From positions 1 through 33,662 of the forward strand of contig JBBCAX010000049.1 of NCBI GenBank assembly GCA_051382335.1: a DNA stretch of 33,662 bases, in the 5' to 3' direction. Shown here one piece after another: positions 10,962 through 28,290 of this stretch. The DNA comes from Deltaproteobacteria bacterium TL4. Lineage in GTDB: Bacteria > SAR324 > NAC60-12. The first letter of the stretch is position 1; each line of letters starts with the position of its first letter. The notes beneath the pieces are model-generated. The model was not told the origin of the DNA. It saw only the letters and a program-made list of their open reading frames with translations, and did not search any database. The translations under genes were made by a program, and so were the position numbers.

Positions 10962-12368
10962 TTACGAAACGCCGGGAGCTTCGAGAATATGCATACACAT
11001 GGCGGCTTCTTCAGAACCCAAGGCGCCGCCGCCGTTTTCGGCCATAGCCAGTTTCGGATTTTTCACCTGACGTTTTCCCGCATTCCCTCTGAGTTGCGTA
11101 ACCAGTTCATGAATTTGTCCCAGTCCTGACGCACCGATCGGATGGCCTCTTGATAACAATCCGCCACTGGGGTTGATGGGGATTTTACCACTAAGTTGGG
11201 TTGCGCCTTTTTCAGCAAAAAGGCCTCCTTCTCCCTTGGGACAGAATCCCAGGTTTTCGACTTGAGCCAATTCTCCAAAGGCTGTGGCATCATGAACTTC
11301 CGCCAAGTTGATATCCTCCGGACCAACCCCCGCCCTTTCGTAAGCCAGTTTGGCAAGTCGTTCTCCAATGTTCGGAAGCTCACTGCCTTCAGGATATTCC
11401 ATTCCTGAACCCAGAATAGAGGCTCTGATTTTGATCGCTTGTTTCTGTAAGCCAAGTTTTTTTACCATGTCTTCAGAACACAAGATTGCGGACGCTGAAC
11501 CATCACCAATAGGAGCGCACATGGAGCGGGTTAAGGGATAGCTCACCAGACGGTCCGACAGAACTTTTGCCACAGGTACTTCAAACTGATATTGAGCGTT
11601 AGGGTTCAAAGTACTGTTGAAGTGGTTTTTTGAGGCAATGATCGCCAGTTGTTCCACGGTGCTGCCATAGGTTTTCATGTGCATTCTGGCCGCATAACCA
11701 TAGATGTCCATGAAAGGGGAATGATCTCCAGAGGCGAATTTGCTCAACTTGTAAACGGTCTCATAGCCGAGACGTTCTCCCATCGTAATGCCCACCGTAA
11801 AAGCATCTCGGGCTTCCTTAATTTGAGCTTTGAGCGTTTTTGTGTGCTTACTGGAAGAAGATTTTTCAGGTTTGGAATATTTCTTTTTGAAGGCTTCAAC
11901 GACTTTTTGATCTTCTTCAGTTAATTTAAATCCACTTAGATTCTTTGTGTTTTCAAGGCAATTTTCAATATCGGTTCCGCCTAAAAACGCGGAAAAAGTG
12001 TTCATTTTGTTGGTGTTGAACATTTGTTCCGCACCGACAGCCATCGTGATGTCATAAAGCCCGCTCATGACTCCCAACCAGGCGTGATGTAACGCCGTGG
12101 AACCGCTGGCACAAGCATTTTCGACGTTGGTAATCGGGATTTTTTCCAACCCCATTGGGCGAAGCGCAACCTGCCCCCGGATGCACATTTGGCCTTTCAT
12201 GTGTCCCCAGCTTGAGTTGGAAAACCAAACGGCCTGAATGTCTTTCAGATCCATGGCGGAATCCTTTAAGCAGCCTAAAACGGTCTGCTGGGAAAGATCC
12301 TTAATACTTTTGTCCAGGTACCTGCCAAATTTAATCGTATGCACTCCAACGATATAAACATCTCTCAT
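10962..12368 (-). CDS. SCP2/SCPx-type thiolase family protein
   Basis: NVENACASGSTA (catalytic Cys), SPFMDIY, CAPIGDG, EVHDA, NPSGGL, GHPIGASG, ENGGG. Carries a long charged insertion. Confidence 0.9.
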   Translation of the reverse strand: MRDVYIVGVHTIKFGRYLDKSIKDLSQQTVLGCLKDSAMDLKDIQAVWFSNSSWGHMKGQMCIRGQVALRPMGLEKIPITNVENACASGSTALHHAWLGVMSGLYDITMAVGAEQMFNTNKMNTFSAFLGGTDIENCLENTKNLSGFKLTEEDQKVVEAFKKKYSKPEKSSSSKHTKTLKAQIKEARDAFTVGITMGERLGYETVYKLSKFASGDHSPFMDIYGYAARMHMKTYGSTVEQLAIIASKNHFNSTLNPNAQYQFEVPVAKVLSDRLVSYPLTRSMCAPIGDGSASAILCSEDMVKKLGLQKQAIKIRASILGSGMEYPEGSELPNIGERLAKLAYERAGVGPEDINLAEVHDATAFGELAQVENLGFCPKGEGGLFAEKGATQLSGKIPINPSGGLLSRGHPIGASGLGQIHELVTQLRGNAGKRQVKNPKLAMAENGGGALGSEEAAMCMHILEAPGVS

Positions 12369-12398
12369 AAGTCACCTCCATAATAATGTTGATCGATA

Positions 12399-13493
12399 CT
12401 AGGCAGCGTTTTTTTGCCAAAGGGAAATACTTTTTATTTGTGGATGTCCCAGCAAAAACTCACATTGTTTGGCATCCCGAAAACGTCGTTCCTGTTCATA
12501 GTCCTCCATGTAGCCATTGCCTCCAAATATTTGAATTCCATTGGAAGTTTGTCCAGAAAGTTTTTCCGCACTGCTTAGCGCTAAGCCCATTTGTCCGTCA
12601 TTGATGGAGTTTTCCGGTTTAAGGGACATCAGGATTCCACGCCAGCTTTCGTACAAACTCGCGTTATCTCTGTAGAGTTCCGAGAGCATTTTTTTCATCA
12701 CGGTATGTTCCTGAATGATTTTGCCTCCCTGATACCGTTGGGCCGCATATTTTTGCGCATGAGCATAACTGCTTTGGAGAATTCCTGAACGGATGGCCAG
12801 CATATAAACTTCAGCTTGAGACCACAGGGTTGTGACGACTTGAGTGCAGCGGGCACCTGTCATGATTTTCTGCTTTTCCAATACGTCCACATGATTCAGT
12901 GTTAAATCGCCCACAGGACATCCTCGCAATCCCAGCGTGTGTTCCACAGGTTTTCTTTGATACTCACTATCGTATTTCACATGAGCATCGGCGTAATCGA
13001 CAAAAATCAGCAGGTTTGGTTCCTCAGGAGTATGAAACAGAGGTAACATCAGCTTTTTCGCAATAGGAAGCGCAGGAATAAAAGTCCATTGACCCGAGTA
13101 GCAAAGGTTATTGTTGGTTTTTTGCGCCTTGAGGTAATGTTGCCATTCCTGGGGATGGTCAAACAGAGGCAAGGCCACCCATCCGTCAGGTGCGTCCAAA
13201 CCCGCGCTAGCCAATAACGATCCCGCCATGTTTTGTTGCACGACCAGTAAGGCGAGACTGGGGGAATAGCGGGCCAGCGTGTAAGCCGTTTCAGCGACAA
13301 GATCCAAGGCTCGCGAGGTTTCCGGAGTATGCAGAATATCGAGAATTCCCAGTTTTTGAAGTTCGTTGAATAACGCTTCGGGAAAGGTGGGATTTTTTTG
13401 ATAAGCTTCCAACTCTTTGAGCCACTGCTCCTTGTGAGCGTTGCACCAGTCTTCTAAAGTTTCACGTAATATCGATTGAGTCTCTTGATCCAT
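12399..13493 (-). CDS. Acyl-CoA dehydrogenase family protein, degenerate (possible non-catalytic partner subunit)
   Basis: TLGLRG, YAAQRYQGGK and IQIFGGNGYMEDYEQERRFRDAK are present. The canonical IYEGTxE/Q segment is replaced by EFLLGHPQI, and the N-terminal FAD motifs are poorly conserved. Confidence 0.8.
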   Translation of the reverse strand: MDQETQSILRETLEDWCNAHKEQWLKELEAYQKNPTFPEALFNELQKLGILDILHTPETSRALDLVAETAYTLARYSPSLALLVVQQNMAGSLLASAGLDAPDGWVALPLFDHPQEWQHYLKAQKTNNNLCYSGQWTFIPALPIAKKLMLPLFHTPEEPNLLIFVDYADAHVKYDSEYQRKPVEHTLGLRGCPVGDLTLNHVDVLEKQKIMTGARCTQVVTTLWSQAEVYMLAIRSGILQSSYAHAQKYAAQRYQGGKIIQEHTVMKKMLSELYRDNASLYESWRGILMSLKPENSINDGQMGLALSSAEKLSGQTSNGIQIFGGNGYMEDYEQERRFRDAKQCEFLLGHPQIKSISLWQKNAA

Positions 13494-13501
13494 AGTCTCT
13501 C

Positions 13502-15001
13502 TCAGTTTATAAATTGTTGCTGAAGGCGTTTTTTCACATAATCCAGCATATTGATCTGGTTGGTTCCTTCATAGATTTGTAACAATTTCACATCTCGTAA
13601 CAATTTTTCCGCGCCATTAGCGTGTCGGCAGCCTTCTTTTCCCATTAACGAGATTGCCTGCTGACAATTTTGAAAAGCCAAATCCGAGCAGCTTACTTTA
13701 GCGACATCTCCGTAAGCCGTAGCGATATTTCGCTCGGACTCTGGCATTTTTTGAAAGCCAAGCCAATTCGCGAATTTTGTCATTGCGGGCGCGTCAAAGA
13801 AGGCTTGGCTGAGACTTTTGACAGGAGGCATTTTCATTAACCATTCCGGCGCGTCCTTACCCAAGGTTAGACTGTCGATCAGGGAGAGCAGGCCTTTATA
13901 ACAAACAGCGGTTATGGCATTTAAATAAATCGCGCGGCTCATTTGAGCACGTCTACAGAGCTCGGCCAATTCCAGTTGAACCCACTGATGCTGTTCCATG
14001 GGAATTCCCAGCATTTGACTTTTACGAACATAAGCCAGTGCTGTACGGTAAGCGCCTTCAGCAACGCCCGTCGCAAACCCTCCAACACCGCTCCTGGTCG
14101 CGCCGAGAACATTCGCTAATAAAATTCCAGTCGAAGCCTTCCGATCCAGGCAAACAACCATATCATCAGGAACAAAAACATCTTCAAAAATCATTTCACT
14201 CGCAGGACAAATCCGTTGTCCCATTTTCTTTTCATTCCTGGCACAGGAAACGCCTTTACTGTGATTGGGGACCAACAGGATCAAGCTTGATTCCGCAAGA
14301 TGCGTTCTGTCAGAAAAAGCAAAAACCACATGCAAATCGGCAAGGCTGCCGTTGGAAATAAACACTTTGTTGCTGTTTAAGACGTAGCCGCCTTTGACTT
14401 TTTTGGCAAAGGTTTTCAAATTAGCTTTTTCAAATTCTTCAGAATCTTCCGCGTCAGAACCAGCACCTGATTCAGTGAGACACGTTGAAAGCAGAATAGG
14501 TTTTCCCTTTCGTTCATTCTCACTGATCAAATCCGCAATGTATTTGATCAATCGGGTATTCATCGTTGCGACAACACATGAAATGGCCAAGCCACTGACA
14601 CCAATCAAGTTGGCCAGACCGACACAATGGGTCGCGATGACTTCCAGATTGATCACATAGGATATAAAAGGCATCCCTCCCCCGCCTGTGATTCTGGGAA
14701 AAAATCCGGAAAATAATTGGTACTCACAGGCTTTCTCCAAAATATCCCAGGGAACATAGGAAGGGTCCTTCATCACTTTGAGGTCAATTTCCAAGGCCCG
14801 AGGCGCGATGTAGCCTTCTGTAAACTCAATAATTCGGTTATAGTAGTGTTCCATTTCCGTATAACCGCTCACTCCCTTTTTAGCCAGATAAGCCAATTCA
14901 GGATATCGTTCTTCAAAGCTCCACTCTTTGGGTAAAACCCCTGCTTTGGCAAAAGGAGGACATTCCTCCACAAAAATAGATTGATTTTTAGACTGGCTCA
15001 T
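13502..15001 (-). CDS. Acyl-CoA dehydrogenase
   Basis: CLTESGAGSD, LNSNKVFISNG, KKMGQR, FEDVFVP, EKLLRDVKLLQIYEGTNQI (catalytic Glu position intact). Confidence 0.92.
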   Translation of the reverse strand: MSQSKNQSIFVEECPPFAKAGVLPKEWSFEERYPELAYLAKKGVSGYTEMEHYYNRIIEFTEGYIAPRALEIDLKVMKDPSYVPWDILEKACEYQLFSGFFPRITGGGGMPFISYVINLEVIATHCVGLANLIGVSGLAISCVVATMNTRLIKYIADLISENERKGKPILLSTCLTESGAGSDAEDSEEFEKANLKTFAKKVKGGYVLNSNKVFISNGSLADLHVVFAFSDRTHLAESSLILLVPNHSKGVSCARNEKKMGQRICPASEMIFEDVFVPDDMVVCLDRKASTGILLANVLGATRSGVGGFATGVAEGAYRTALAYVRKSQMLGIPMEQHQWVQLELAELCRRAQMSRAIYLNAITAVCYKGLLSLIDSLTLGKDAPEWLMKMPPVKSLSQAFFDAPAMTKFANWLGFQKMPESERNIATAYGDVAKVSCSDLAFQNCQQAISLMGKEGCRHANGAEKLLRDVKLLQIYEGTNQINMLDYVKKRLQQQFIN

Positions 15002-15009
15002 AATGCTCC

Positions 15010-15837
15010 CTAAAGACCTCTCATTGAGGCAAGACGGTTGATGATGTTGCCATAAGTTTCCGGAAACAAACGTTGAATCAGATCCATAGCCTGGGCATCA
15101 GGACCAATCAGAATTCTTTCTTTTTCACGGGTAATGCCTTTGATGATTTTTTTTGCGGTATCCTCCGCGGAGGTCATCGTCGCGTTATCAAAGGACGTCG
15201 CGAAAGATTTGGAATCACGGGATTTCCCATCAATGCTTTTATAGGCGCGAGCGTTATGCGCGATCCGGGTTTTGATGCCACCGGGATGAATGCATGAAAC
15301 TTTAACGGAGGTGCCTTTGAGTTCCTGTTTCAAAGATTCCGTGAAGCCTTTGACGGCAAACTTTGAAGCGTTATAAACCGCCATGGTCGGAACTGCGACA
15401 ATGCCAAAAATACTGGAAATATTCACAATATGGGCTTCCTCTTGTTCTTTGAGGTGTGGCAGAAACGCTTTGGTCCCATAAACAACGCCCCAAAAATTAA
15501 TGCCCATCAACCACTCAAAATCCTCATACGAAACATCCTCAATCGTTTGAGCCACGGCGACACCGGCGTTATTGATCACAAGATGCACATCATGGTGCTG
15601 ATCAATCACCTCTTCAGCAAACTGATAAACCGCTTCTTTTTTAGAAACGTCCAGGGGATGGGCACTGACCTTGATTGAATTTTGACTGACTTCTTTTCTG
15701 GTTGCCTCCAAGCCTGAAGTATCGATATCCGCAAGCGCGAGATTACAACCTTTTTGGGCTAACTGCAAAGCGAGTTCCCTTCCTATTCCCGAAGCGACTC
15801 CTGTGATCACCGCTGTTTTTCCTTTTAAAGAACGCAT
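15010..15837 (-). CDS. Short-chain dehydrogenase/reductase (classical SDR)
   Basis: TGVASGIG, NNAG, ISS, YNASK, HPGGIKT. The acidic residue in LADID suggests NAD(H) preference (inference). Confidence 0.93.
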   Translation of the reverse strand: MRSLKGKTAVITGVASGIGRELALQLAQKGCNLALADIDTSGLEATRKEVSQNSIKVSAHPLDVSKKEAVYQFAEEVIDQHHDVHLVINNAGVAVAQTIEDVSYEDFEWLMGINFWGVVYGTKAFLPHLKEQEEAHIVNISSIFGIVAVPTMAVYNASKFAVKGFTESLKQELKGTSVKVSCIHPGGIKTRIAHNARAYKSIDGKSRDSKSFATSFDNATMTSAEDTAKKIIKGITREKERILIGPDAQAMDLIQRLFPETYGNIINRLASMRGL

Positions 15838-15913
15838 CGTTTTGACTCCTCTTCTCGTTTATTTGTTATAGACATTCATTCAAATAAATTCATTTGAGTC
15901 TAACCCAGACTGT

Positions 15914-15989
15914 GGAGTGCCAAAGCTTGCTTTGGCCAAAGCCCAAGAAAGGCCTTCGCCTTTCTGGCCAAAGCAAGCTTTGGCACTCC
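15914..15989. repeat. REP doublet (REPIN-like) of a GGAG-headed palindrome, possibly within a degenerate MITE (~15871-16056)
   Basis: Perfect 25-bp inverted repeat GGAGTGCCAAAGCTTGCTTTGGCCA (15914-15938) / TGGCCAAAGCAAGCTTTGGCACTCC (15965-15989). Each arm is itself a hairpin GCCAAAGC-TT-GCTTTGGC. Imperfect outer inverted repeat with an 11-bp perfect core AAATAAATTCA (15882-15892) / TGAATTTATTT (16035-16045). Confidence 0.82.
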
Positions 15990-16083
15990 TGAAACAGCGT
16001 TGTTTCAACGGATCTCGCAACAGGATGAGTTTTCTGAATTTATTTTCATGAGTATGACACCCTTTGAAACTTATTGCCAGAAT

Positions 16084-16869
16084 TCAGTTTTTCCTACTGG
16101 CAAGTACAGCCGCCCCTAATGCTCCCATCAATTGAGGATCTTCATTAAGAGGTTCAATTTCAACTCGTAAATATTGATGCAGAGATTGGAGCAAGCCTTT
16201 GTTTTTAGCGCAGCCTCCGGTCACCGTGACATTAGGTTCGATGCCGGCTCTTTTCGCCATGCCAAAAACACGTTTGCAAATGGAAGTATTGATTCCCGCG
16301 GCAATATCCGCTGGCGGAACACGGCTGTTCAGTAAGCTGATCACTTCGGTTTCAGCAAACACGCTGCATTGAGAGGTAATGGAAACGGTTTTTTTTGAGT
16401 TTAAGGAGAGTGCGGCTAACTCCTCCAGCGACATTTGGAAGATACGAGCCATGGCCTCAAAAAAGCGTCCTGTTCCCGCGGCGCATTTATCGTTCATGGC
16501 AAAATCACGCACGGTTCCGTTCTCATTCACCGAAATCGCTTTGACATCTTGTCCTCCGATATCGATGATCGTTCTTATGGTAGGATTGCAGTGATGCGCG
16601 CCAACAGCGTGACAGGTAATTTCAGAAACGTTCTCACCCGCAAAAGGAATTTCGGTTCGCCCATAACCGGTACCCACCAAAAATTTTAAGTTTCGATAAC
16701 CGTCTAAATCCTCAATTGGACGACACGCTTCCTCAAGAACTTTGGTTGCCGTTTCTACAGGATCAATTCGACTGGGAATGAGCGCGCTTCCCACAATTTT
16801 GCCCTCTTTAATAATAACGGCTTTACCTGTGGTTGACCCCACATCACAACCTCCATAATAACCTGACAT
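16084..16869 (-). CDS. 2-hydroxyacyl-CoA dehydratase activator (HgdC/HadI-like; BadF/BadG/BcrA/BcrD ASKHA ATPase)
   Basis: DVGSTTGK, TGYGR, EITCHAVG, IDIGGQDVK, MNDKCAAGTGRF, SQCSVFAETEVIS, TGGCAKN, GALGAA. Confidence 0.93.
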   Translation of the reverse strand: MSGYYGGCDVGSTTGKAVIIKEGKIVGSALIPSRIDPVETATKVLEEACRPIEDLDGYRNLKFLVGTGYGRTEIPFAGENVSEITCHAVGAHHCNPTIRTIIDIGGQDVKAISVNENGTVRDFAMNDKCAAGTGRFFEAMARIFQMSLEELAALSLNSKKTVSITSQCSVFAETEVISLLNSRVPPADIAAGINTSICKRVFGMAKRAGIEPNVTVTGGCAKNKGLLQSLHQYLRVEIEPLNEDPQLMGALGAAVLASRKN

Positions 16870-16894
16870 AGTCTCTCCTTTGATAATTTATTTT

Positions 16895-17032
16895 GGCCTC
16901 CGGTCTAAGCCGGGACAGTTGGAGTACCAAAGCTTGCTTTGGCCTGGAACGTGAACGTCTTGCTTGCTCCTCGCCAAAGCAAGCTTTGGCACTCCATTGA
17001 GAGCGGTCCTGTCCCGCTTTAGACCGGAGGCC
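16895..17032. mobile_element. 138-bp MITE (IS1595-like ends) enclosing a GGAG-REP doublet
   Basis: 24-bp terminal inverted repeat GGCCTCCGGTCTAAGCCGGGACAG (16895-16918) / CTGTCCCGCTTTAGACCGGAGGCC (17009-17032), 22/24. Exact 8-bp direct repeat TTTATTTT (16887-16894, 17033-17040). Inner REP arms at 16921-16943 and 16973-16995 belong to the same family as 15914-15989. Confidence 0.88.
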
Positions 17033-17051
17033 TTTATTTTTGTTTTTTTGT

Positions 17052-18524
17052 TTAACGATCGAGACGCTCCGCTTTCATAATCGTTTCCATGAATTCTTCA
17101 ATTTGTCGTTTCATTGAGGAAGGGTGTGAAATCCTGGAGTCGCATAAATCATACTGCAGAAAGAACAGCGGAATATTCCGTTTCCGGCATTGCTCCCGGA
17201 AAATACCGTTCAAGGCTTTGGTATTTTTGCAGCCAACATGCTCCGCCATAAAAATCATATCCAGGTCAAAATGTTCGTAAATGTGGAAGAGATCTGAAAA
17301 AAAGTTTTCAGAAGGTCCTCGGGTATGACGCGCCATCGGACCTTCCATAATGATCTGTGCCAGCCCATCCAGCATGGAATCAGGCGTTGCGGTATCAATA
17401 AAGCCGTGACGCTGGAAAGACATCATATCCATGATAAACGCAATGCCATAAGTGCTTTCCGTCCAATTGTATAAATCGGAAAAACTGGGAGTTGTGGGAT
17501 TCCACATCAAGGCTCGGAAGCGTTCTTCTTTGAGTGCGCCTTGTCCTCGCTCACGAAGTTGAGTTGCGAGTTTCAGCAGTTTTTTGAAATACTCAATGCT
17601 CAACGCATAGCCGGGAAAAAACTGTGAAGTAATCAAGTGCCCAAAAATAATCGGCTCTCCCGCCATGGGCGCGGGACGTTCCCGAAGCATCTCCCAAAGC
17701 TCCAATTCCAGTTCCTTGGCCTGATTACGCATTTCACAAATTTCACGTAACCGGTCCCAATCCATGCGTCCCGGTGTTTTTTCTTCCAACCAGGTGATCA
17801 TGCGTTTTAACTCTCCTACGAAATAGGTCCTCGCCCGTTCATTTTTGAAATTATGTGGAATATCCAGGCGAAACGCGGGAGCCTGGAGTTCCCGTTCCAT
17901 GACGGTATAGGAGGCCATCCCGCTATCACAGGGAAGATTCGACGCGACAATAGCGACAGGCGTAGGCATGTGTTTCATCAAGGTCATGCCCATGGTGGTT
18001 TTAGGCAAACTACAGGTGTCGGGCGCAATGCCTTCATTTTCCGCGGCATCAATATACGCTTCAGCAATGGGCGGAAATACCAAAGGCATGACCATGCCTC
18101 CAAACTCCCCCATCCAGGGTTTTAAGCCCATGGCCATCAAAATTTCAGGAGGAACCATATCTTCATGAAGCACGACTTTATCAGGATGCGTAAAAACGCC
18201 ATCCAGTAATTCTTCCATCACTTGTAATAATAATTTCGCAACCATCGCATTGGCTTCACGGTATTCTCCTGTGCGTCGATGAACCAGTTTAAAATAAAGG
18301 AATTCAAGGTTGATCACAAATTCCTTCAGCCAGGGGTAGCGCTTCATGTTTTTGGTGATTTCAGAAACTCCGTGTCTTCTGCTGAAATTTCCAACTTCTT
18401 TCAAGAGTTGAAATTGATATTTGGCGTTAATACTCAAGTCATTGACATTTTCCTGGAAGGATTTGTGTTTTAAATTTGCCACTCCCAGATCAAATTCGGT
18501 TCTTAAAATTTCAGCGATATCCAT
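17052..18524 (-). CDS. 2-hydroxyacyl-CoA dehydratase family subunit (HgdA/HadB/BcrB-like) with N-terminal extension
   Basis: Putative [4Fe-4S] ligands APDTCSLPK, NLPCDS, HVGCKN; FRLDIP; C-terminal DSR...IEEFME; adjacent to the activator and partner subunit. Confidence 0.85.
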   Translation of the reverse strand: MDIAEILRTEFDLGVANLKHKSFQENVNDLSINAKYQFQLLKEVGNFSRRHGVSEITKNMKRYPWLKEFVINLEFLYFKLVHRRTGEYREANAMVAKLLLQVMEELLDGVFTHPDKVVLHEDMVPPEILMAMGLKPWMGEFGGMVMPLVFPPIAEAYIDAAENEGIAPDTCSLPKTTMGMTLMKHMPTPVAIVASNLPCDSGMASYTVMERELQAPAFRLDIPHNFKNERARTYFVGELKRMITWLEEKTPGRMDWDRLREICEMRNQAKELELELWEMLRERPAPMAGEPIIFGHLITSQFFPGYALSIEYFKKLLKLATQLRERGQGALKEERFRALMWNPTTPSFSDLYNWTESTYGIAFIMDMMSFQRHGFIDTATPDSMLDGLAQIIMEGPMARHTRGPSENFFSDLFHIYEHFDLDMIFMAEHVGCKNTKALNGIFREQCRKRNIPLFFLQYDLCDSRISHPSSMKRQIEEFMETIMKAERLDR

Positions 18525-18578
18525 AATGCACTCTGTAATAATTGATAGCTTAAAACGGTCCTACTTTCCCCTTCCGCC

Positions 18579-18761
18579 CAATACCCGTGAATGAAATCAT
18601 GTTCGTAGTTCCGCCTTTAGGCGGTAAGCCTTGCAGAAAAGCCGCCTAAAGGCGGAACTACGAACTTTTCACAATGACGTCAGCAAAACTCGCTATAATT
18701 TTATAAGTGGCTGTAATTAAAATACTTATTATTATTTTCCAAATTTCATTCACGGATATTG
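18579..18761. mobile_element. 183-bp MITE (IS4-like ends) enclosing a GTAG-REP doublet
   Basis: 19-bp terminal inverted repeat CAATACCCGTGAATGAAAT (18579-18597) / ATTTCATTCACGGATATTG (18743-18761), 18/19. 11-bp flanking direct repeat CCCCTTCCGCC (18568-18578) / CCCCTTCCACC (18762-18772), 10/11. Inner perfect 24-bp inverted repeat GTTCGTAGTTCCGCCTTTAGGCGG (18601-18624) / 18642-18665. Confidence 0.85.
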
Positions 18762-18771
18762 CCCCTTCCAC

Positions 18772-19902: not shown

Positions 19903-20711
19903 TATGAGATCTCCATATTTTCCAAAACGGGAAGGGCTTTGTTAATGAGTGAATTGTTGTTCCATAAACCCAACGTGTGTACGATCTCTCGGACAGCAAC
20001 CACCGCGGGGTTCGCTGAAGGAAGTTTCCATAAAGACGTTCCTTCCCGGTCAAAACGTCGAAGTAACGCATCTTCGGGAATAGTTCCGACTAATTTCATA
20101 TTTTGCGGAAGCTGTACCTTTTCAAGCTCAGATACTCGATTCGCAACAACGGCAATGTGAAAGTCAGGTGCCAATTGAGAAATCATTTCCAGTGTCTCCA
20201 AACTTCGAATCGAGCCATCAACCACAACAATCACTTGAGAAACGCGCTGAGTCACTTGCCGGTTGATTTGTTCCAGTCCTGCTTCCGCATCAATGACAAT
20301 GGCAGAAAACTGAGAGGCGATTAAGTCAATAGCTTCTCGTAAAAGTCGATTTACGGGGCAGTAACAGCCCTTTTTTGAGGAATGGCCCATACTCAGAAGA
20401 GAGTAATCAGCACGCTCGGTCAAGGCTTCCAATAAAAGATAATCCACTTGCTCCGCAAGTTCAACTTTCCCCTCTTTGCTGGCTCCACGAGCCGCGGCAA
20501 TAATTTCATCACGGACTTGCCCCAACGTTTTGGCGGATCGTTCTCCAATGACAGAAACCAATCCTCCGGCGGGGTCCGCGTCCACTAAAAGCAGCGGTTG
20601 GATTCCCAAGTCAATTAAGGTACGAGACAAGAGCGCGGAAAGAACGGTTTTTCCAACACCCCCTTTTCCGCACACAGCGATGATGGGTTGAGGCGTTTCA
20701 AGGGTTGACAT
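19902..20711 (-). CDS. cooC: CooC/AcsF-family nickel-insertion ATPase
   Basis: Deviant Walker A GKGGVGKT, VDADP, metal-binding GCYCPVN, DAEAGLEQINR, ANRV, IPED. Overlaps both neighbours. Confidence 0.85.
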   Translation of the reverse strand: MSTLETPQPIIAVCGKGGVGKTVLSALLSRTLIDLGIQPLLLVDADPAGGLVSVIGERSAKTLGQVRDEIIAAARGASKEGKVELAEQVDYLLLEALTERADYSLLSMGHSSKKGCYCPVNRLLREAIDLIASQFSAIVIDAEAGLEQINRQVTQRVSQVIVVVDGSIRSLETLEMISQLAPDFHIAVVANRVSELEKVQLPQNMKLVGTIPEDALLRRFDREGTSLWKLPSANPAVVAVREIVHTLGLWNNNSLINKALPVLENMEIS

Positions 20712-21480
20712 TTTGTTTCCTCCTTTTTTTTATAACCAGCACTTCTCGAAGGTCGTCGCAAACTTCGTTTTCATCACAGGTTTTACAAGACATGTCCGAG
20801 CATTCCAGGTCCCCGTCACTATTGATCGCGAGTTTCTTGTGCTGTCCTGATAAGATGGCGGCTTCCTGAGCGATGGATTTTAGTCCTTCAACCTCCAGGG
20901 CCGAGGAGGTCACAAAAGCGACTTCAACCGCTTCGACTTCCTGGAATTCACTTTGATACAACTCGCTCAACGCCGCTCCAACGGCTCTAAAGGTCAACCC
21001 TGCCTCAATCCCACGATGACTCACACGAATCCATAAGCGTCCTGGCATAGATCGCGCGGCGTAACCTTGAATTCTGTTGGTTAAAAACTGCAACTTTTCA
21101 AGATCAAAAGGATCAGGTCTCGAATCCGGTTTTAACGCAAGCATGATTACCTGAGCAAAAGGAGACTTCGGTTCCGCTGGCATTTGATCCAGATCCGGTC
21201 CGATCAAAGAAATTCTTCCATGATTTACCAACTCACGCTTTGACGTCAACAATAACAACGACTGTGATTGCGTGGAGGGGTGTCCCAACTCCACGGCGGT
21301 GTCTTTTGCAAGAATAATCTCAGGACGGCCTTTCTCTTTGGGCTTCAACTTTTGATACACAACCTCATCCACTTCCATGATTTTTGTTTGAGGCGATGAT
21401 TCAAAATGCTGTTTGACCCTCTTGATTAAAAAGGCCATATCCGTAAAGGTTGAAGGGACCGGAGTCGCAAGGGCTTCCAT
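20698..21480 (-). CDS. Stand-alone homolog of the acetyl-CoA synthase (CdhC/AcsB) middle domain with a C-terminal Cys4 motif
   Basis: DTAVELGHP, GRISLIGPDLDQM, PFAQVI, NRIQGY, LWIRVSHRGIEAGLTF and VEAVEVAFVT resemble ACS domain-2 motifs (VELxGP, GKVxVIGPDI, WxRVSKxAxxKGF). Ends with C-x4-C-x2-C-x5-C and has no A-cluster domain. Homology recognised by eye. Confidence 0.65.
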   Translation of the reverse strand: MEALATPVPSTFTDMAFLIKRVKQHFESSPQTKIMEVDEVVYQKLKPKEKGRPEIILAKDTAVELGHPSTQSQSLLLLTSKRELVNHGRISLIGPDLDQMPAEPKSPFAQVIMLALKPDSRPDPFDLEKLQFLTNRIQGYAARSMPGRLWIRVSHRGIEAGLTFRAVGAALSELYQSEFQEVEAVEVAFVTSSALEVEGLKSIAQEAAILSGQHKKLAINSDGDLECSDMSCKTCDENEVCDDLREVLVIKKRRKQNVNP

Positions 21481-21487: not shown

Positions 21488-23371
21488 CTAAACGGTGACA
21501 GGTCGAACTTTTTTCAATCCTGCAATCAAGTTACTTGGAGTTCCTGACATCAGGATTTTGATCTTCCCTTCTTTTTGTCCAATTTTATCCAATAACAGAT
21601 TGGTGGCCCACTTTGCGGTAACATTGGTTTTTTCCATAAAAACCGCAGGATGAGGGACAAACGCCATATCCCCTATGAATAACAAGTTATCAAAGGGCGA
21701 TTGAATCGGAGGACGAAGGCTTTCATCACCAGGGTGATAAGTTGTATAGTGACGCCATTTATTGAGATAATAAGACTGGTAGGGTGGCAGATCGGGCATC
21801 ACGGTTTTCAATTCAGCATGACACTTTTCAGCAATCTCAGCATTGGTAAAATTCTGTACCAGATGCGCTTTGGAAATCTGAGTTTCAATAATGGTGATAT
21901 CTTGTCCCGCGTACTCTTTAATGATACCTCGGGTATTTCCCTCTAACGCGGGGAGGGTCCAGTTGATGGTGATCCCCAGATGCTGGAATCCTGTCGCGAA
22001 AAAGACGTAATTGTCGGGTCTTTCCTTGAAGCGATCTTTCCAAAATTGACCGCCTTCAAACCACATATTGAGTACATAAACTTCAGTTGCGTGGAGATTG
22101 GTAATATTATCAAAATACTTATTTCCCCCGAGCACATTCTGGTTCATGGCAATCAATTTTTGACTGGCGGGAATATCCATCGCGCTGATGTAAAAATCGG
22201 CTTCAAAGGTTTTTTGTGTTTTTTCTTCTTCAGAAAGCAGCTTTAACTTCGCGCCTTCAGCACCGCAAAAGGGACACTCCTCATAATGCATGTTGCCGTA
22301 AATCAGTTCACCGCACACCTGACAACGCCTGACTTCAGGCATATTTATTTGACTGGTAAGGATCCCGGCGATTTGTCCATTCTTCACCATCAAACGTTCC
22401 ACTTCTGTGTTATAATGGATTTCTCCCCCTTTCCCGAGGATATAATTGACCATCGGTTGAAGAAAGGTTTCTCCGGGGGGATTCATGTAAAAATTAACAT
22501 CCCAATCCTTTGGAGAACCGGCGACTAACTCAAAAATATTGCCTACCGTCAAGGCCGAGAGTTTATCCACGTTGTTAAAGTAAGCCATCTCCACAATGCT
22601 ATCGACTATTTTGTAAGTTAAGGCATCAGACAGTCCCAGCTTTTTGCAGTAGTCCTCGATGGTCATACTATCCATGTATTCCCGTTGCTTCTTGTCCGCA
22701 TAATCAAAAGTCATCAGTCTTAGGAAAAAGGAGAGGGCTTCGCTCTCCTTGCCTTTCAAATGATCCAATTTCATCAGACCCGTAAGCTGTTCCACACGGT
22801 CATAAGGTGAAGGCCACGTTGTTTTGGGGATGTAACTTTGCGTTCCATCTTTATCTAAAAAGGTATAGATCGAATTTTTTTCACTCGCATCCTGAAGTTG
22901 AAATCCATATCGGCCCATGAATTCCCTCAAGTTGTTATAAAAACCCCAAATAGCGTGGAGTCCATGCTCTCGTATAAAGCCTTGAAAATTAGGATCTTTT
23001 TTCCAAGGATGATCCTTGGGGCCAAACGATTTATCTCTCCAGGATTTTAACTTTCCGCCAGGGATACCGGTCTTTTCTAAAAGTGTCACTTTGAAACCTC
23101 TGGAACTCAACTCAACACCCGCTTGCAGTCCAGACAATCCTCCACCCAAAATACAGACCGTTTTTCCATTGGATTTGAGATCAACATGGTTTTCGTCAAC
23201 CTTGGGATATTTAGCTCTGTAGAAGGGATCGTCGTTTAGCGGAATAGCGGCCAGTCCTGTGCCTCCCACCGCTGCGGCAATACCCACGGTCGTCGCAGAC
23301 ATTCCTAAAAAGCCCCTGCGCGTCGTTTGAGTCGGATCTTGATCTTTTGATTGTGGTTCTGAAGGTTTCAT
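21488..23371 (-). CDS. Tat-signal FAD-dependent oxidoreductase (amine oxidase/phytoene desaturase/CrtU-like fold) with inserted rubredoxin-like module, paralog B
   Basis: Tat motif TRRGFL plus hydrophobic stretch; Rossmann ILGGGLSGL...LEK...GGK; EHGLHAIWGFYNN; CQVCG-x11-CPFC insertion; C-terminal NLLFIGD...FMEK. Confidence 0.8.
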   Translation of the reverse strand: MKPSEPQSKDQDPTQTTRRGFLGMSATTVGIAAAVGGTGLAAIPLNDDPFYRAKYPKVDENHVDLKSNGKTVCILGGGLSGLQAGVELSSRGFKVTLLEKTGIPGGKLKSWRDKSFGPKDHPWKKDPNFQGFIREHGLHAIWGFYNNLREFMGRYGFQLQDASEKNSIYTFLDKDGTQSYIPKTTWPSPYDRVEQLTGLMKLDHLKGKESEALSFFLRLMTFDYADKKQREYMDSMTIEDYCKKLGLSDALTYKIVDSIVEMAYFNNVDKLSALTVGNIFELVAGSPKDWDVNFYMNPPGETFLQPMVNYILGKGGEIHYNTEVERLMVKNGQIAGILTSQINMPEVRRCQVCGELIYGNMHYEECPFCGAEGAKLKLLSEEEKTQKTFEADFYISAMDIPASQKLIAMNQNVLGGNKYFDNITNLHATEVYVLNMWFEGGQFWKDRFKERPDNYVFFATGFQHLGITINWTLPALEGNTRGIIKEYAGQDITIIETQISKAHLVQNFTNAEIAEKCHAELKTVMPDLPPYQSYYLNKWRHYTTYHPGDESLRPPIQSPFDNLLFIGDMAFVPHPAVFMEKTNVTAKWATNLLLDKIGQKEGKIKILMSGTPSNLIAGLKKVRPVTV

Positions 23372-23456: not shown

Positions 23457-25304
23457 CTACACATAAACGGAGGCCACAGTTTTTAAGGCTGAAACAATGG
23501 CACTGGGAGTACCCGACATTAAAATTTTAATTTTCCCCTCTTTTTGTCCAATCTTATCCAACAAAATATTGGTTGCCCATTTTGCGGTGACATTGGTTTT
23601 TTCCATGAACATGGAAGGCATCGGAATAAACACCATATCTCCAATAAATAACAAATTATCAATAGGGGACTGAATCGGAGGGCGTCTACCTTCATCCCCA
23701 GGAAGCCACCGTGTGTAGGTCCGCCATTTGTTAACATAGGAGGATTGGTAAGGCGGAAGTTCAGGCATAATACCCTTCAACTCTTCGTAACAACGATCCG
23801 CCATTTCCTGATTAGATAAGAGTTCCACATTATGAATCTTGGCAATTTGTGTTTCAATAATGGAAACATCATATTCTTCATACTCCTTGACAATCGTAGA
23901 AATTTTACCCGTTTTTTCATCGCGCAAAGGCGTTGCCCAATTAGCGGTCAGTCCTACGTAATCGAAACTTGTCCCAAAGAAATTGGGAGGTGTCGCTTCT
24001 TTGATTGGCAGCAGCTTGGTCCAGTGTTTTCTGCCTTCAACCCAAAAATTGACAATAAACACTTCCCTGGAATGCAGCCCCAAGATATTTTGGAAATAGG
24101 GATGTTCCCCGAATGACTTGATATTCGTCGAAATCAATTTCTGCATTCCCGGGGTATCCATCGCCATGATAAAATAGTCAGCATGGAATTCCCTTTCACT
24201 TTTTTCGCTGTCATTGAGATCTTTAAGTTGCGTTCCTTCAGCGGCGCAAAAAGGGCAAACCTCATGGGGGTCATCGCCATAAATCAATTCCCCGCAAATT
24301 TGACACCTTCGAAGTCTTGCTCCGATAAGCTGAGTGGTGAAGACACTTTGGATTCGATCCGGATTCCTGTTGAGGTGCGTGACCTCCGTGTTGTAATGAA
24401 CGGTTCCTCCCTTTTTCAGGATATAATCCACCATCGGTTGTAAAAAAGTTTCGATGGGAGGATTAGCAAAAAAGTTCACCTCTAACATGTCTTCAGGCGC
24501 TCCTGCAATCAACTGCATGAGCTGCGCAAATACAGCGGCAGAGCAGACTTTGACGCTGTCAAAAAACGCCATTTCCACGACACTATCAATCAGCTTGTAG
24601 ATACTTGCGTCCGAAAGCCCCACCTTTTTACAATATTCCTCCAACGTCATGCTGTCTAAATAATCACGCTGAGCTTTATCGGCATAATCAAAAGTAAACA
24701 ACTTTTGCATCACCTTCAATAAAGGTAGCTCTTCGCCTTTTTCAAGCAGGTTTAGATTCATGAAGGAATAAAGCTGCTGTAACCGGTTGTAGGGCGCGGG
24801 CCAGGTTGTTTTGGGAATATAACTGAGCGTTTTGTCTTTATCCACAAAAGTGAAAATGGATGTACGATCAGGCAGATCCAGAAGTTGCATGCCATATCGT
24901 CCCATGAACTCCCGTAAATTATTATAATGTCCCCAAATGGCGTGTATCCCATGTTCTTTAGGGAAGCCTTTAAAGTTTGGGTCTTTCTTCAAGGGATGAT
25001 CGGGAGGACCGAAGCTTCGATCCCGCCAAGACTTTAATTTACCACCAGGAACACCCGATTTCTCCAGAATTTCGATTTTAAACCCTCGTGCCGCCAATTC
25101 AACACCGGCCTGAAGCCCTCCGAGTCCTCCCCCCAAAATACAAACCGTTTTCCCATTGGCAGGAAGTTCAACGTGATTTTCTTCAACATAATTGAATTTC
25201 TGACGATAAAACGGTTCTCTACTTAAAGGGACAGCGGCAACGCCTATTGCCCCGACCGTCGCTGCGGAATAGGATAAAAACTCTCGTCTGGTCGGTTTCT
25301 TCAT
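23457..25304 (-). CDS. Tat-signal FAD-dependent oxidoreductase with inserted rubredoxin-like module, paralog A
   Basis: Tat motif TRREFL; ILGGGLGGL; EHGIHAIWGHYNN; CQICG-x11-CPFC insertion. Colinear with 21488..23371 over the full length, with an almost identical C-terminus. Confidence 0.8.
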   Translation of the reverse strand: MKKPTRREFLSYSAATVGAIGVAAVPLSREPFYRQKFNYVEENHVELPANGKTVCILGGGLGGLQAGVELAARGFKIEILEKSGVPGGKLKSWRDRSFGPPDHPLKKDPNFKGFPKEHGIHAIWGHYNNLREFMGRYGMQLLDLPDRTSIFTFVDKDKTLSYIPKTTWPAPYNRLQQLYSFMNLNLLEKGEELPLLKVMQKLFTFDYADKAQRDYLDSMTLEEYCKKVGLSDASIYKLIDSVVEMAFFDSVKVCSAAVFAQLMQLIAGAPEDMLEVNFFANPPIETFLQPMVDYILKKGGTVHYNTEVTHLNRNPDRIQSVFTTQLIGARLRRCQICGELIYGDDPHEVCPFCAAEGTQLKDLNDSEKSEREFHADYFIMAMDTPGMQKLISTNIKSFGEHPYFQNILGLHSREVFIVNFWVEGRKHWTKLLPIKEATPPNFFGTSFDYVGLTANWATPLRDEKTGKISTIVKEYEEYDVSIIETQIAKIHNVELLSNQEMADRCYEELKGIMPELPPYQSSYVNKWRTYTRWLPGDEGRRPPIQSPIDNLLFIGDMVFIPMPSMFMEKTNVTAKWATNILLDKIGQKEGKIKILMSGTPSAIVSALKTVASVYV

Positions 25305-25380: not shown

Positions 25381-25734
25381 TTAATACCTTTTGGGAAGCG
25401 CAAAATCTTTAGTTTGATGAAGTTTCCTAAAATAATATCCCGCTTCAAATCCATTTTGGATGGTAATCGCGTCTGAAGTGCAGGCAGCGAGACAACATCC
25501 ACACGCGACACAAAGGCTAACGCCTGGAGCGTTATAGACCAGGAAGGGGATAGATTCAGGGTCCTTTTTATCTTTGTGTTTGTCAATCGACAGCGATCTG
25601 CCTGGACAAATGGAAACACAAACACCACAACGATTGCATTTCTTCTCGTCAAAAGTCACTTCGCCTGTATGCATATCCTTGGCATCATCATAGTCAGGAA
25701 AATTCCATCGTTCTGTACGTTTTAAGAATTGCAT
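25381..25734 (-). CDS. 2x[4Fe-4S] dicluster ferredoxin-like protein
   Basis: CNRCGVCVSICP and CVACGCCLAACT motifs; starts 1 nt after the nitroreductase stop. Confidence 0.88.
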   Translation of the reverse strand: MQFLKRTERWNFPDYDDAKDMHTGEVTFDEKKCNRCGVCVSICPGRSLSIDKHKDKKDPESIPFLVYNAPGVSLCVACGCCLAACTSDAITIQNGFEAGYYFRKLHQTKDFALPKRY

Positions 25735-25735
25735 C

Positions 25736-26485
25736 TCATTCTCCCAATCTTTCTACTCTTGGTTTTTTGTTGTTAAGATCATCAAACCAGTCCACCCTCT
25801 GTATCTCTCTGGGGACTTCCCCGTCCAATCGACCTTTAGGTTTTCCGATGGCGATACAGTCTGTTAAACGATAAGGATATTTGACCCCAAAAAATTGACG
25901 CCAGTGTGGGTAATACATCAGGGCTTTAATCAGTCCAATCCAACACGTTCCCGCTCCCATGCTATGCGCCGCAAGCACCATGTTTTGTCCGCAGATCCCG
26001 ACATCCAAGGCCGGTTGTCCAATCCCTCGGGAATCCTCCAGGAGAAGAATAAGTGTCGGTGCGCCATGAAAAACGCCAACCTTTTCTTTAACTATCTGCT
26101 GCATTAAGGAAAAAGGAACGGGGTGAAATTGATGTGGATTGATTTTTTTCAAGGTATTGCTAAGGGGTTTCAACACCCGGTTGACTACGGAGTTGTCATT
26201 ATCCATCACCCCCATGAGCACTTTGAAAAAACGAATAATATCTTTCTCCATCTCATCAATCAGCTCTTTATTATTGACCACCACAAACTTCCAGGGCTGT
26301 GAATTCCCCGCTGAGGGGGCGTAACGTCCCGCTTCCAAAATTCTGCGGATTTGATTATCAGGCAAGGGGGTACTGCGAAACGCGCGGATGCTTCTTCGTT
26401 CCATGATTGTCTTTTCAACAGGATTCCAATTCATCCCCTCAACATATCGTCCCAAAGGTGACAGTTCTTTATTTACTGCGGTCAT
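25736..26485 (-). CDS. Nitroreductase (FMN-binding) family protein
   Basis: RRSIRAF, APSAGNSQPWKFVVV, QNMVLAAHSMGAGTCWIG, IAIGKP. Start reassigned to ATG 26485 (GGAGG upstream) instead of 26536. Confidence 0.9.
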   Translation of the reverse strand: MTAVNKELSPLGRYVEGMNWNPVEKTIMERRSIRAFRSTPLPDNQIRRILEAGRYAPSAGNSQPWKFVVVNNKELIDEMEKDIIRFFKVLMGVMDNDNSVVNRVLKPLSNTLKKINPHQFHPVPFSLMQQIVKEKVGVFHGAPTLILLLEDSRGIGQPALDVGICGQNMVLAAHSMGAGTCWIGLIKALMYYPHWRQFFGVKYPYRLTDCIAIGKPKGRLDGEVPREIQRVDWFDDLNNKKPRVERLGE

Positions 26486-26559
26486 GTTTGTTACCTCCAA
26501 GTGACAGGAAGTGAGGACGAATCTGCGTTCACTCACCCCTCGGTTAAAAGAGCTCGATC

Positions 26560-28290
26560 TCAGGACTCAACGCATTGACGTGTATCGGGTGCCGTCCAAG
26601 TATCCGCGGTTACGCCCTCGGCTTTGAGGAGGTGTTTCACAACTCGATGCGTTTCCGTTTTAGGCAGTTCTTTGAGCATCCTGACATAAGTCGGCATGGC
26701 ATAACGTGGCAGTTTCCCTTCCAAATCTTTGAGCAGTTGTTCTGGCGTTAATTTTTCTCCAGGTTTGAGAACCAAAATCACCATAACCTCCTCCTCACCC
26801 AGCGCGGAAGGGACACCAAAGGCGGTACTCTCAACGACGGAAGGATGTCGGTCAATCACACTTTCTAATTCAAGCGCGGAGATGTTTTCGCCTTTGCACC
26901 TCATGGAATCGGTCTTACGTCCTTCGAAATAAAGAAATCCGGCTTTATCCTTTGAAAGCAGATCCCCACTATAAACCCATCCATCTCGAACCTTCTTTTT
27001 GGTGGCTTCTTCGTTTTCAAAATAAGCAACTTGAGCATGACTCTGTTCTCCAACGTAATGAATCAATTCTCCTGGCGTGTTGACAGGAACATCATTTCCG
27101 GCATCATCAATCAAACGATAACGCTTTCGCCCCATAGGTTTTCCCACAGAACCCACCGGTGCGTTTCCAAAATTAAAGGTTGAAAATCCGCCGCCGTCAA
27201 CAGCCGCAAAAGCTTCCCAAATTTCAACATTAAACCGCTCCTCAAAAGGTTGCCACAAATGAGCAGGACAGGCCGCGCTCAGCACTTTACGAACCTTGTG
27301 TTTTCCATCCAGAGCGTCAGGCGTTTGCTTCATTAAAATGGCAATCATGGTACCTAAGGTATTGAAAATGGTCGCTTCCGATTCCCGGATCTCTTTCCAG
27401 AAATTTCTGGCACTGAATTTCCGGGAAAGAACGACGCGAGAATTGGCAAACATCGATTGAAAGGTCGTAATGATCAGCGCGTTCGCATGAAACAAGGGCA
27501 GGCAGGTATAATAAACATCGTCTTCTTTAAGTATCAGATGATTGAGCAGCCTCACTAATTTGGCTTGGGAATGGCCATATTGGTAAACCACACCTTTGGG
27601 ATGTCCTGTCGTTCCCGAAGTGTACATCAGCATACTTGGCGCTGAGGACTCAATCCCGCTTAAGGGAGTTTGCTGGGGCTTACTTGCCAACAAAGTTCGA
27701 TAGGGATGCCCCGTCTGCAGTTCTTGATCACTGGAAAACTCAGGCACAATGACGATTTCAATGCTCTTTTTCAGTTTGGCTTGAACTCTCTGAAGTTCTG
27801 GAAGCAGAGCTGGCGAAGTGAAAATCGTGTCGACTTTGGCATTGTTGATGATGTAGGCCAACCCCTCATCTCGCAAAGAGGTATTGATGGGGATGACACA
27901 GGCCCCAATCCTTTGTGCGGCAAAAAAGATTTCCAGAAAGGCTGGAACATTGGGTAGAAAAAGACCGACCATTTTGGAAACGTTGGTTCCCATGTCGAGA
28001 AGAGCCTGGGCAACTCGTGACGCATGATCATTCAAATCCTGATAGCTGTACCGCTCACCCTCAAAGTCCAGAAAAATCCGCCCTCCATATCGAGACGCTC
28101 TCTGGTCTAATTCTTCAGCCAACGTCCGGTTAGGCATAAAACGAGGTTCCTTGGCTTTTACCGTTTCACTAATCGTATGCAAAAAGGGAATCAACCCTTC
28201 ATTGCGGATTTCGGTGCTTGCGAAATGGATGATCCCCTTCAAAACCGCTTTCTTCAAAGCGAGTGGATCTCTGATTTCTGGCTGTGTCAT
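26560..28290 (-). CDS. AMP-forming acyl-CoA synthetase (CaiC-like carboxylate-CoA ligase)
   Basis: YTSGTTGHPKGV, LPLFHANA, SGDL, GRKTDSMRCKGENIS, PKTETHRV. Probable start ATG 28290 (AAGGA upstream); the ORF track start is 28311. Confidence 0.92.
   Translation of the reverse strand: MTQPEIRDPLALKKAVLKGIIHFASTEIRNEGLIPFLHTISETVKAKEPRFMPNRTLAEELDQRASRYGGRIFLDFEGERYSYQDLNDHASRVAQALLDMGTNVSKMVGLFLPNVPAFLEIFFAAQRIGACVIPINTSLRDEGLAYIINNAKVDTIFTSPALLPELQRVQAKLKKSIEIVIVPEFSSDQELQTGHPYRTLLASKPQQTPLSGIESSAPSMLMYTSGTTGHPKGVVYQYGHSQAKLVRLLNHLILKEDDVYYTCLPLFHANALIITTFQSMFANSRVVLSRKFSARNFWKEIRESEATIFNTLGTMIAILMKQTPDALDGKHKVRKVLSAACPAHLWQPFEERFNVEIWEAFAAVDGGGFSTFNFGNAPVGSVGKPMGRKRYRLIDDAGNDVPVNTPGELIHYVGEQSHAQVAYFENEEATKKKVRDGWVYSGDLLSKDKAGFLYFEGRKTDSMRCKGENISALELESVIDRHPSVVESTAFGVPSALGEEEVMVILVLKPGEKLTPEQLLKDLEGKLPRYAMPTYVRMLKELPKTETHRVVKHLLKAEGVTADTWTAPDTRQCVES

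Follow-up and report, generated by a model that had tools for sequence, protein, structure and literature searches.

A two-block gene cluster of Deltaproteobacteria bacterium TL4 that may link a double-cubane-type radical enzyme to the anaerobic degradation of hydrophobic acids

What kind of route would bring together an acyl-CoA ligase, β-oxidation enzymes, a radical enzyme and a protein pair of nickel-chaperone type is the question raised by a gene cluster of Deltaproteobacteria bacterium TL4. The window analyzed was the whole contig JBBCAX010000049.1 (C49; 33,662 nucleotides) of the TL4 genome (GCA_051382335.1, here G000), which is 6.6 Mb in size and rated 100% complete. An earlier note, made from the sequence alone, had described 14 co-oriented genes with many tight junctions. 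This was borne out, since 14 intact open reading frames, all on the minus strand, were found between 10962 and 28311, and 6 of the 13 junctions overlap or are shorter than 10 bp (-14, -1, 1, 7, 8 and 8 bp). The remaining junctions comprise four of 23-85 bp and three of 182-247 bp. The start given for the cluster, 10962, was correct, but its end, 28290, corresponds to the second Met of the ligase, whose reading frame extends to 28311. The gene families were also as named, except for the label "dehydratase", as the two subunits so called belong to the HGD-D family only and reached none of the curated NCBIfam equivalog cut-offs. The catabolic assembly is real and comprises two blocks, which come together in several lineages, plus extras. 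Block A contains a nitroreductase, a ferredoxin, the ligase, a pair of acyl-CoA dehydrogenases (ACADs) and an SCP2-type thiolase. Block B contains a shortened relative of acetyl-CoA synthase (mini-ACS), the ATPase CooC and the beta subunit, alpha subunit and activator of the radical enzyme. In the account tentatively preferred here, the two blocks would together degrade a hydrophobic, probably methyl-branched acid without oxygen, and a net two-electron reduction at low potential would unblock β-oxidation.

Recurrence of the two blocks was examined around mini-ACS and around the thiolase. A profile of 48 mini-ACS proteins, searched in the GTDB collection, gave 35 loci from Desulfobacterota, Myxococcota, Spirochaetota, Leptospirales and others. 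Their neighbourhoods, of up to 10 kb and often cut by contig ends, contained the activator (27 loci), beta (27), alpha (26) and CooC (23), as well as an SCP2-like gene (14), TetR (10) and a GMC oxidoreductase (10). Lipid-type neighbours of related loci included SCP2, START, FadL, DUF1302/1329 and lipase genes. Orthologues of the thiolase, 60-70% identical, were present in 17 of the 35 mini-ACS genomes, and none was found in plasmids. Thiolase loci of 3.5 to about 40 kb were obtained from 16 of these 17 genomes, and homologues of the nitroreductase (45-62% identity, 13 loci), the ligase (40-45%, 12 loci) and the ferredoxin (12 loci) were found in most of them. The first ACAD was found in 9 thiolase loci (and in 16 of the 35 mini-ACS genomes), and the second in 7, always together with the first. 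The same 16 loci held the activator in six cases, alpha and beta in five and mini-ACS with CooC in three. The short-chain dehydrogenase/reductase (SDR) is not a conserved member, with an SDR-like match in one of the 35 mini-ACS loci and one of the 16 thiolase loci. In Desulfatibacillum alkenivorans the gene order of block B is identical to that of the window, and block A reads thiolase, ligase, ACAD, ACAD, two activators, alpha, beta and GMC, with GntR, nitroreductase and ferredoxin genes divergent. The idea of one pathway holds because block A adjoins a related alpha/beta pair in five of the 16 thiolase loci, and because both blocks recur in other lineages their association is, judged from gene neighbourhoods, beyond chance. 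Together with the lipid-type neighbours, this co-occurrence supports the earlier proposal that a hydrophobic, bulky acyl-CoA is handled anaerobically by a route not yet described.

The search for conserved clusters thus found each block elsewhere, but the full set of 14 genes was absent from every other locus examined. This would suit a mosaic, in which each block and the flavoenzymes have substrates of their own and transfer has brought them together in one lineage. Within 10 kb of mini-ACS (35 loci) the thiolase was seen three times, the ligase, nitroreductase and ferredoxin once each and the flavoenzyme never. mini-ACS was missing from all 40 relatives of TL4 and the alpha profile matched none of 44 family members, a pattern that suggests transfer. 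Mobile repeats inside the cluster, and the presence of mini-ACS without the thiolase in all seven genomes positive for the benzoyl-CoA ring hydrolase Oah, also fit a mosaic. It is nevertheless unlikely, as block A adjoins an alpha/beta pair (5/16) or mini-ACS and CooC (3/16) in distant lineages, the flavoenzyme elsewhere adjoins alpha genes, an ACAD pair or thiolase and ligase, and the TL4 genome offers block A no other beta subunit.

The six double-cubane cysteines of the beta subunit (Cys36, 74, 101, 262, 293 and 327) were conserved in 32 of 32 homologues, three fragments having been dropped. They aligned with six of six double-cubane cysteines in BzdN and in DCCP, with four in HadC and with three in MbdN. 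Arg53, beside the distal sub-cluster, was invariant. The best solved matches were BzdN (214 bits) and HadC (194 bits). According to Fuchs 2025 (PMC11971306), BzdN holds an [8Fe-9S] double cubane that serves as a two-electron store, and the 2-hydroxyacyl-CoA dehydratases have lost it. In Suppl. Fig. 11 of that paper, the letters of which were partly scrambled in extraction, the six-Cys set appears in BzdN, ThncrN and DCCP, as well as in an Archaeoglobus "HgdB", and is absent from BcrC, MbrN, HadC, FldC and Acidaminococcus HgdB. The cysteine motif is also given in the DCCP review (PMC7317905). The named enzymes with the set in that figure, BzdN, ThncrN and DCCP, are all reductases, and HadC, FldC and Acidaminococcus HgdB lack it, which favours a reductive role.

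In the alpha subunit, C171, C199, C432 and K175 were invariant among 30 homologues, and E140 was present in at least 90% of them. The best solved matches were BzdO (116 bits) and HadB (81 bits), and the motifs are MGEF and CSLPK, not YPEN and CxYAR. Each of the 12 alpha-type rows in Suppl. Fig. 12 of PMC11971306 has a Tyr after the first Cys, which is missing here. Among 83 alpha-like proteins, in a midpoint-rooted FastTree phylogeny of uncharacterized sequences only, alpha groups with CSLPK proteins, and those with CSYAR form a separate clade. As judged from these features, alpha fits neither the Bzd-type reductases nor the dehydratases. The scores for the curated families were likewise low, 45 of the 750 bits required for HadB, 102 of 700 for HadC, 118 of 454 for bzdN and 186 of 350 for NF040772 (DCCP). 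The HgdAB-type dehydratase identity proposed earlier was therefore not upheld, beta having the six-Cys set and alpha standing outside the clade with dehydratase-like motifs. Of the three HGD-D genes in the TL4 genome, one encodes a beta and two encode alpha subunits, and it is common for an alpha gene to have no beta gene beside it. The window has one activator gene, other activator-like matches in the genome being at most 32% identical. Five block A loci (G059, G052, G072, G074 and G070) combine an alpha/beta pair with two different activator genes, in the manner of class I reductases. Expansion of the HGD-D family was observed in G059, G046, G062, G073 and G053, with 9-19 matches per genome. 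A further gene of TL4 (G000:C112:32906-37162, L005) encodes a 1418-aa activase-DUF2229 fusion, the type of plasmalogen/ether-lipid reductases, and in L026 a gene like it, of 1400 aa, is found close to mini-ACS.

As proof of reduction, the six-Cys set was weakened by a control count, since it was found in 69 of 74 beta-like proteins from all loci gathered. The set is thus ancestral; it bars the described dehydratases and does not prove reduction, and a net reduction is therefore only modestly favoured. Several other findings weigh against the preferred account. Four six-Cys beta proteins adjoin alpha subunits with the dehydratase-like motifs YPEN/CSYAR, the lead of BzdN over HadC in bit score is small, and BcrC and MbdN, which are reductase subunits, lack the set. 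The uncharacterized Archaeoglobus "HgdB" has it in Suppl. Fig. 11 of PMC11971306. The cluster has a single activator gene, as in dehydratases and DCCP. The alpha subunits beside block A elsewhere belong to a different clade, with 27-30% identity, and close homologues of the flavoenzyme occurred in only 5 of the 35 mini-ACS genomes and in none of the 16 thiolase loci. By analogy, mini-ACS and CooC are probably dispensable for the double cubane, because BzdNO acquired it in E. coli (PMC11971306).

As a rival explanation, the enzyme could be a long-chain 2-hydroxyacyl-CoA dehydratase (or reverse hydratase) in which the double cubane was retained from the ancestor. The rescue of 2-hydroxyacyl-CoAs arising from shortened mid-chain hydroxy fatty acids such as 10-hydroxystearate, or from 2-hydroxy lipids, would be its role, and this corresponds to the chemistry of the earlier note, placed at another step of the pathway. 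The single activator with both cluster cysteines, the position of Glu140 at that of the catalytic Glu and the pairing of six-Cys beta subunits with dehydratase-like alpha subunits are in agreement with this. The occurrence of thiolase orthologues in Smithella, Desulfosudis oleivorans and Desulfatibacillum, which are fatty-acid and alkane degraders, agrees as well; they are named members of a large family of 752 clusters. A dehydratase is possible but doubtful, given that none of the characterized dehydratases in PMC11971306 has the six-Cys set, that alpha lacks the Tyr, shows a CxLxK motif resembling that of DCCP and is not part of the CSYAR clade, and that the HadB and HadC scores are far below their cut-offs.

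Reduction of an aromatic ring was also considered, following the logic of bbs/bns combined with bcr/ncr: side-chain β-oxidation would free a (hetero)aroyl-CoA other than benzoyl-CoA, the ring of which is then Birch-reduced. The closest solved structures to the thiolase were BbsB and SCP2 thiolase type 1, and the radical enzyme subunits are closest to BzdN and BzdO, in line with such a route. The BzdO pocket residues Ser44, Trp46, Tyr97 and His131 are, however, replaced by Asp122, Val124, Leu173 and Gly202 in alpha, where the first two were read by eye through HadB and the last lies beside a gap. Oah reached only 61 of 464 bits in the TL4 genome and was not found above cut-off in 28 of the 35 other mini-ACS genomes, and a BbsA-type partner gene is missing. 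Such a route is highly unlikely, and the benzoyl-CoA pathway itself was ruled out by the altered pocket and the lack of Oah. Among the 35 mini-ACS genomes, the seven positive for Oah and the 17 positive for the thiolase do not overlap, kin among them not being independent.

The genes of block A fit a β-oxidation of bulky substrates. As in heteromeric ACADs, the two ACAD genes lie side by side, and the catalytic Glu is kept in one product and missing from the other. As had been noted earlier, no crotonase and no classical 3-hydroxyacyl-CoA dehydrogenase was present among the 26 window proteins scanned. The suggestion that the radical enzyme replaces the hydratase is nevertheless unsupported, because 16 crotonase-family matches above cut-off were found in the TL4 genome outside the cluster. 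On contig C310 (G000:C310:373-2548) a GMC oxidoreductase gene, the product of which is 34% like those of related clusters, directly precedes a crotonase gene, and from this arrangement the crotonase is a candidate for the hydratase lacking in the cluster.

The two copies of the flavoenzyme are 58% identical to each other and both carry twin-arginine leaders, from which export is predicted; the four rubredoxin cysteines were invariant in 45 of 45 sequences. The model of copy 1 (pLDDT 91) gave phytoene desaturase (PDS, 5mog) as best fold match, with E 9e-28 and TM 0.85 by target, and amine oxidases matched far worse (E 8e-20 or weaker). The scores fell below the equivalog cut-offs of HpnE (93/283 bits), ZDS (84/622) and PDS (80/569). 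The desaturase-like fold together with the SCP2 thiolase suggests, by family membership, a methyl-branched or isoprenoid chain. All five flavoenzyme-positive mini-ACS genomes are among the 17 thiolase-positive ones (kin not being independent). In G000:C222, G053 and G058 the flavoenzyme directly precedes an extra alpha gene. Among nine other flavoenzyme loci, two had an alpha gene directly downstream, one an ACAD pair (58% and 50%), one thiolase and ligase, and one Rieske and cytochrome b genes by Pfam, with two more alike by eye. The C222 locus (G000:C222:11676-15461, L003) consists of a homologue of the 112-aa protein of the window, a twin-arginine flavoenzyme (72%) and alpha (68%), without beta or activator. 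In L047:6147-11931, and similarly in L049 and L050, SDR, Rieske and cytochrome b genes and one further gene lie ahead of the flavoenzyme; the Rieske and cytochrome b genes of L047 are a possible electron exit to quinones. A protein of about 290 aa was seen by eye beside the flavoenzyme in L047, L052 and L055. Of 401 genomes from the phylum to which G053 belongs, one, G053 itself, contained the flavoenzyme; no more than three candidates were scored per genome, and the count is no test of enrichment.

The most unusual members of block B are mini-ACS and CooC. C227, C232, C235 and C241 of mini-ACS were invariant in 48 of 48 proteins, and its fold matches that of ACS (2.2 A over 156 columns). Alignment with the ACS of TL4 itself ends at the Cys tail, and mini-ACS ends 19 residues after C241. 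Three of its cysteines roughly align with the first cluster cysteines of that ACS, which we take to be A-cluster ligands. PF19436, the C-terminal domain with the Ni-Ni ligands, was not found in mini-ACS, which thus lacks the nickel domain. Neither a working ACS nor a broken gene fits, as the 57 proteins of the mini-ACS family are full-length, keep the Cys tail invariant and have no nickel domain. TL4 encodes a complete ACS at another place in its genome, and the ACS C-terminal domain was found in 27 of the 35 mini-ACS genomes. In the carbon monoxide dehydrogenase (CODH)/ACS cluster of TL4 (G000:C96:14301-23020, L004) ACS and a CdhD-family domain form one fused protein of 1184 aa, and two CooC-like genes precede it. 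K16, GKT and C116-x-C118 of CooC were invariant in 23 of 23 homologues, and the window CooC is 36% identical to a CooC-like gene of the CODH/ACS cluster. The predicted complex of CooC with mini-ACS scored 0.43, and the highest score among three controls was 0.00. The mark for the complex score was reached by 116 of 157 solved pairs and 2 of 215 mismatched pairs; at the mark, scores of 0.60 or less came from only 18 solved pairs and from both mismatches. The runs agreed in at least 66% of contacts, with a partner pLDDT of at least 76. These models weakly support binding of CooC to mini-ACS.

For the preferred account, in which blocks A and B form one route, the genes, motifs and co-occurrence were observed directly and the order of steps is inferred from them. 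The twin-arginine flavoenzymes would oxidize or desaturate a lipid on the outer face of the membrane, and the ligase would form the CoA ester of the lipid acid. Shortening of the chain would fall to the two ACADs, to a hydratase encoded outside the cluster, to a dehydrogenase, for which the SDR may serve, and to the thiolase. At points where this comes to a halt, electrons would flow from the nitroreductase and ferredoxin to the activator homodimer, which would spend ATP to pass them onto the predicted [8Fe-9S] cluster of beta and then to the [4Fe-4S] site of alpha. One beta is likely common to several alpha subunits, which would set the substrate range, and mini-ACS and CooC likely pair to build or service some metal site of the radical enzyme. 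The substrate is probably a branched or isoprenoid-type lipid. A bolder proposal, and a distinctly unlikely one, is a third chemistry of the BCR/HAD/DCCP kind (benzoyl-CoA reductase, 2-hydroxyacyl-CoA dehydratase as well as the double-cubane cluster protein), with a double-cubane beta core, exchangeable alphas and nickel or an extra metal supplied by CooC and the cut-down ACS, by which the methyl-branch block of isoprenoid lipids would be removed without oxygen, possibly by one-carbon shortening in place of alpha-oxidation.

To our knowledge few substrates of double-cubane enzymes are known, and the anaerobic clearance of branched, hydroxylated and isoprenoid lipids is poorly known. The ligase, ACAD pair, thiolase, electron donor and radical enzyme lie together in one cluster, and owing to this co-location a substrate screen of the ligase could name the substrate. 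The question is testable, since Desulfatibacillum alkenivorans DSM 16219, a type strain in culture, contains both blocks. If a pair of nickel-chaperone type does serve an enzyme other than ACS, this would be new metallo-biochemistry.

Features of the cluster and its surroundings in the window (-, minus strand;., no strand)
Feature	Position	Strand	Characteristics
MerR-family regulator	28978..29739	-	PF13411
112-aa protein	28498..28836	-	between MerR gene and ligase; without Pfam family
acyl-CoA ligase	26560..28311	-	PF00501; best NCBIfam PRK06155 below cut-off; P-loop 231-240
nitroreductase-family flavoprotein	25736..26536	-	PF00881
two-[4Fe-4S] ferredoxin	25381..25734	-	two CxxCxxCxxxC motifs
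Tat FAD oxidoreductase with rubredoxin insertion, copy 2	23457..25304	-	PF01593, PF21349, TRREF
Tat FAD oxidoreductase with rubredoxin insertion, copy 1	21488..23371	-	phytoene-desaturase fold (model)
mini-ACS	20698..21480	-	ACS middle domain and Cx4Cx2Cx5C tail; PF03598 only
CooC/AcsF-type P-loop ATPase	19902..20711	-	intact CxC, deviant Walker A
HGD-D beta subunit	18772..19902	-	six double-cubane cysteines
dispersed palindromic repeat, beta-alpha gap	18525..18771	.	41 genome places
HGD-D alpha subunit	17052..18524	-	three-Cys [4Fe-4S] type, N-terminal extension
dispersed palindromic repeat	16870..17051	.	133 genome places
ATP-dependent activator	16084..16869	-	PF01869; TIGR00241 above cut-off; both cluster cysteines
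dispersed palindromic repeat	15838..16083	.	181 genome places
classical SDR	15010..15837	-	motifs intact
first ACAD subunit	13502..15001	-	catalytic Glu478, IYEG
second ACAD subunit, degenerate	12399..13493	-	Leu at catalytic Glu position (alignment)
SCP2-type thiolase with insertion	10962..12368	-	C86, H359, H409; Cys, HDA and GHP motifs intact

The repeats listed in the table, which contain long perfect palindromes, lie in the three widest gaps (182-247 bp), those next to the genes for the activator, alpha and beta, and each of six other cluster gaps tested matched only itself in the genome. From their many genome copies the repeats are therefore probably late insertions into a once tighter operon. 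A terminator-like hairpin lies inside the beta-alpha repeat (18655-18642), and a sigma-70-like site matching 11 of 12 positions lies upstream of the MerR gene (29816-29788). Both scans were at chance level, with 35 promoter sites against 28.5 expected and 21 terminators against 23.1 expected. The cluster lies downstream of the MerR gene, as described earlier, but the gene for the 112-aa protein between the two had been overlooked. A homologue (53%) heads the C222 cluster and two distant tandem matches lie on C408; its atlas matches were weak and nameless, and it was not seen around the nine other flavoenzyme loci examined. A methyltransferase gene with an N-terminal Cys-rich motif (10231-10890) follows the thiolase after 71 bp on the same strand and was not seen in related loci. 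The GC content of the cluster is 0.42-0.49, against 0.43 for the genome, and composition gives no island signal. No dsrA above cut-off was found in the genome, which has a complete CODH/ACS cluster as well as two genes of the heme-copper oxidase family; judged from this gene content, TL4 is therefore probably a facultative anaerobe.

No characterized pathway matched the cluster, in agreement with the earlier note: equivalog cut-offs were not reached, Oah was lacking and searches of the open literature, which left out most subscription papers, gave no description of it. Partial likenesses to known systems were nevertheless found. With the Bbs and steroid side-chain β-oxidation systems (BbsB, ChsE-type ACADs, SCP2 thiolase) the cluster shares the thiolase type, the active and degenerate ACAD pair and a bulky-acid ligase, but it lacks a hydratase, BbsA and a DUF35 partner, and all matches were below equivalog cut-offs. 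The flavoenzymes share the FAD fold of phytoene desaturase, CrtU and HpnE (PDB 5MOG), and differ in the twin-arginine leader, the rubredoxin insertion and the catabolic neighbours; related clusters have a Rieske domain, and a 35% homologue is labelled isorenieratene synthase by JGI. Compared to the ACS of the AcsB/CdhC type, mini-ACS shares the middle-domain fold and a CxxC..C in register with the first A-cluster cysteines, but lacks the N-terminal domain as well as the C-terminal nickel domain. As with ACS and its chaperone AcsF/CooC, a CooC with CxC is adjacent.

The radical enzyme has the six-Cys subunit and the three-Cys catalytic subunit with Glu of two heterodimers, the Bzd-type class I benzoyl-CoA reductase BzdNOPQ (PDB 8S02; PMC11971306) and the tetrahydronaphthoyl-CoA reductase ThncrNO, and the same ASKHA activator supply. 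It differs from them in lacking the ring-pocket residues and Oah, in its one activator gene, in an N-terminal extension of alpha of about 110 residues and in the attached mini-ACS and CooC. The fold family, the alpha-beta-activator set, the Glu at the catalytic position and the homodimer-capable activator are those of HadBC/HadI, HgdAB/HgdC and FldBC (PDB 3O3M), from which the enzyme is distinguished by the six cluster cysteines of beta, by CSLPK/CDxG in place of CxYAR/CN in alpha, by the separate clade of alpha and by neighbours that handle lipids. The six ligand cysteines and the single activator are also found in DCCP/DCCP-R (PDB 6ENO, 7YYL; PMC7317905), and the N-terminal motifs of alpha resemble CPLIK/CDG of DCCP. 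DCCP is, however, a homodimer, whereas the enzyme of the window is a predicted heterodimer with one six-Cys subunit and three cluster cysteines in alpha. Judged by these features, the radical enzyme is of the BCR/HAD/DCCP kind, yet belongs to none of its three described groups.

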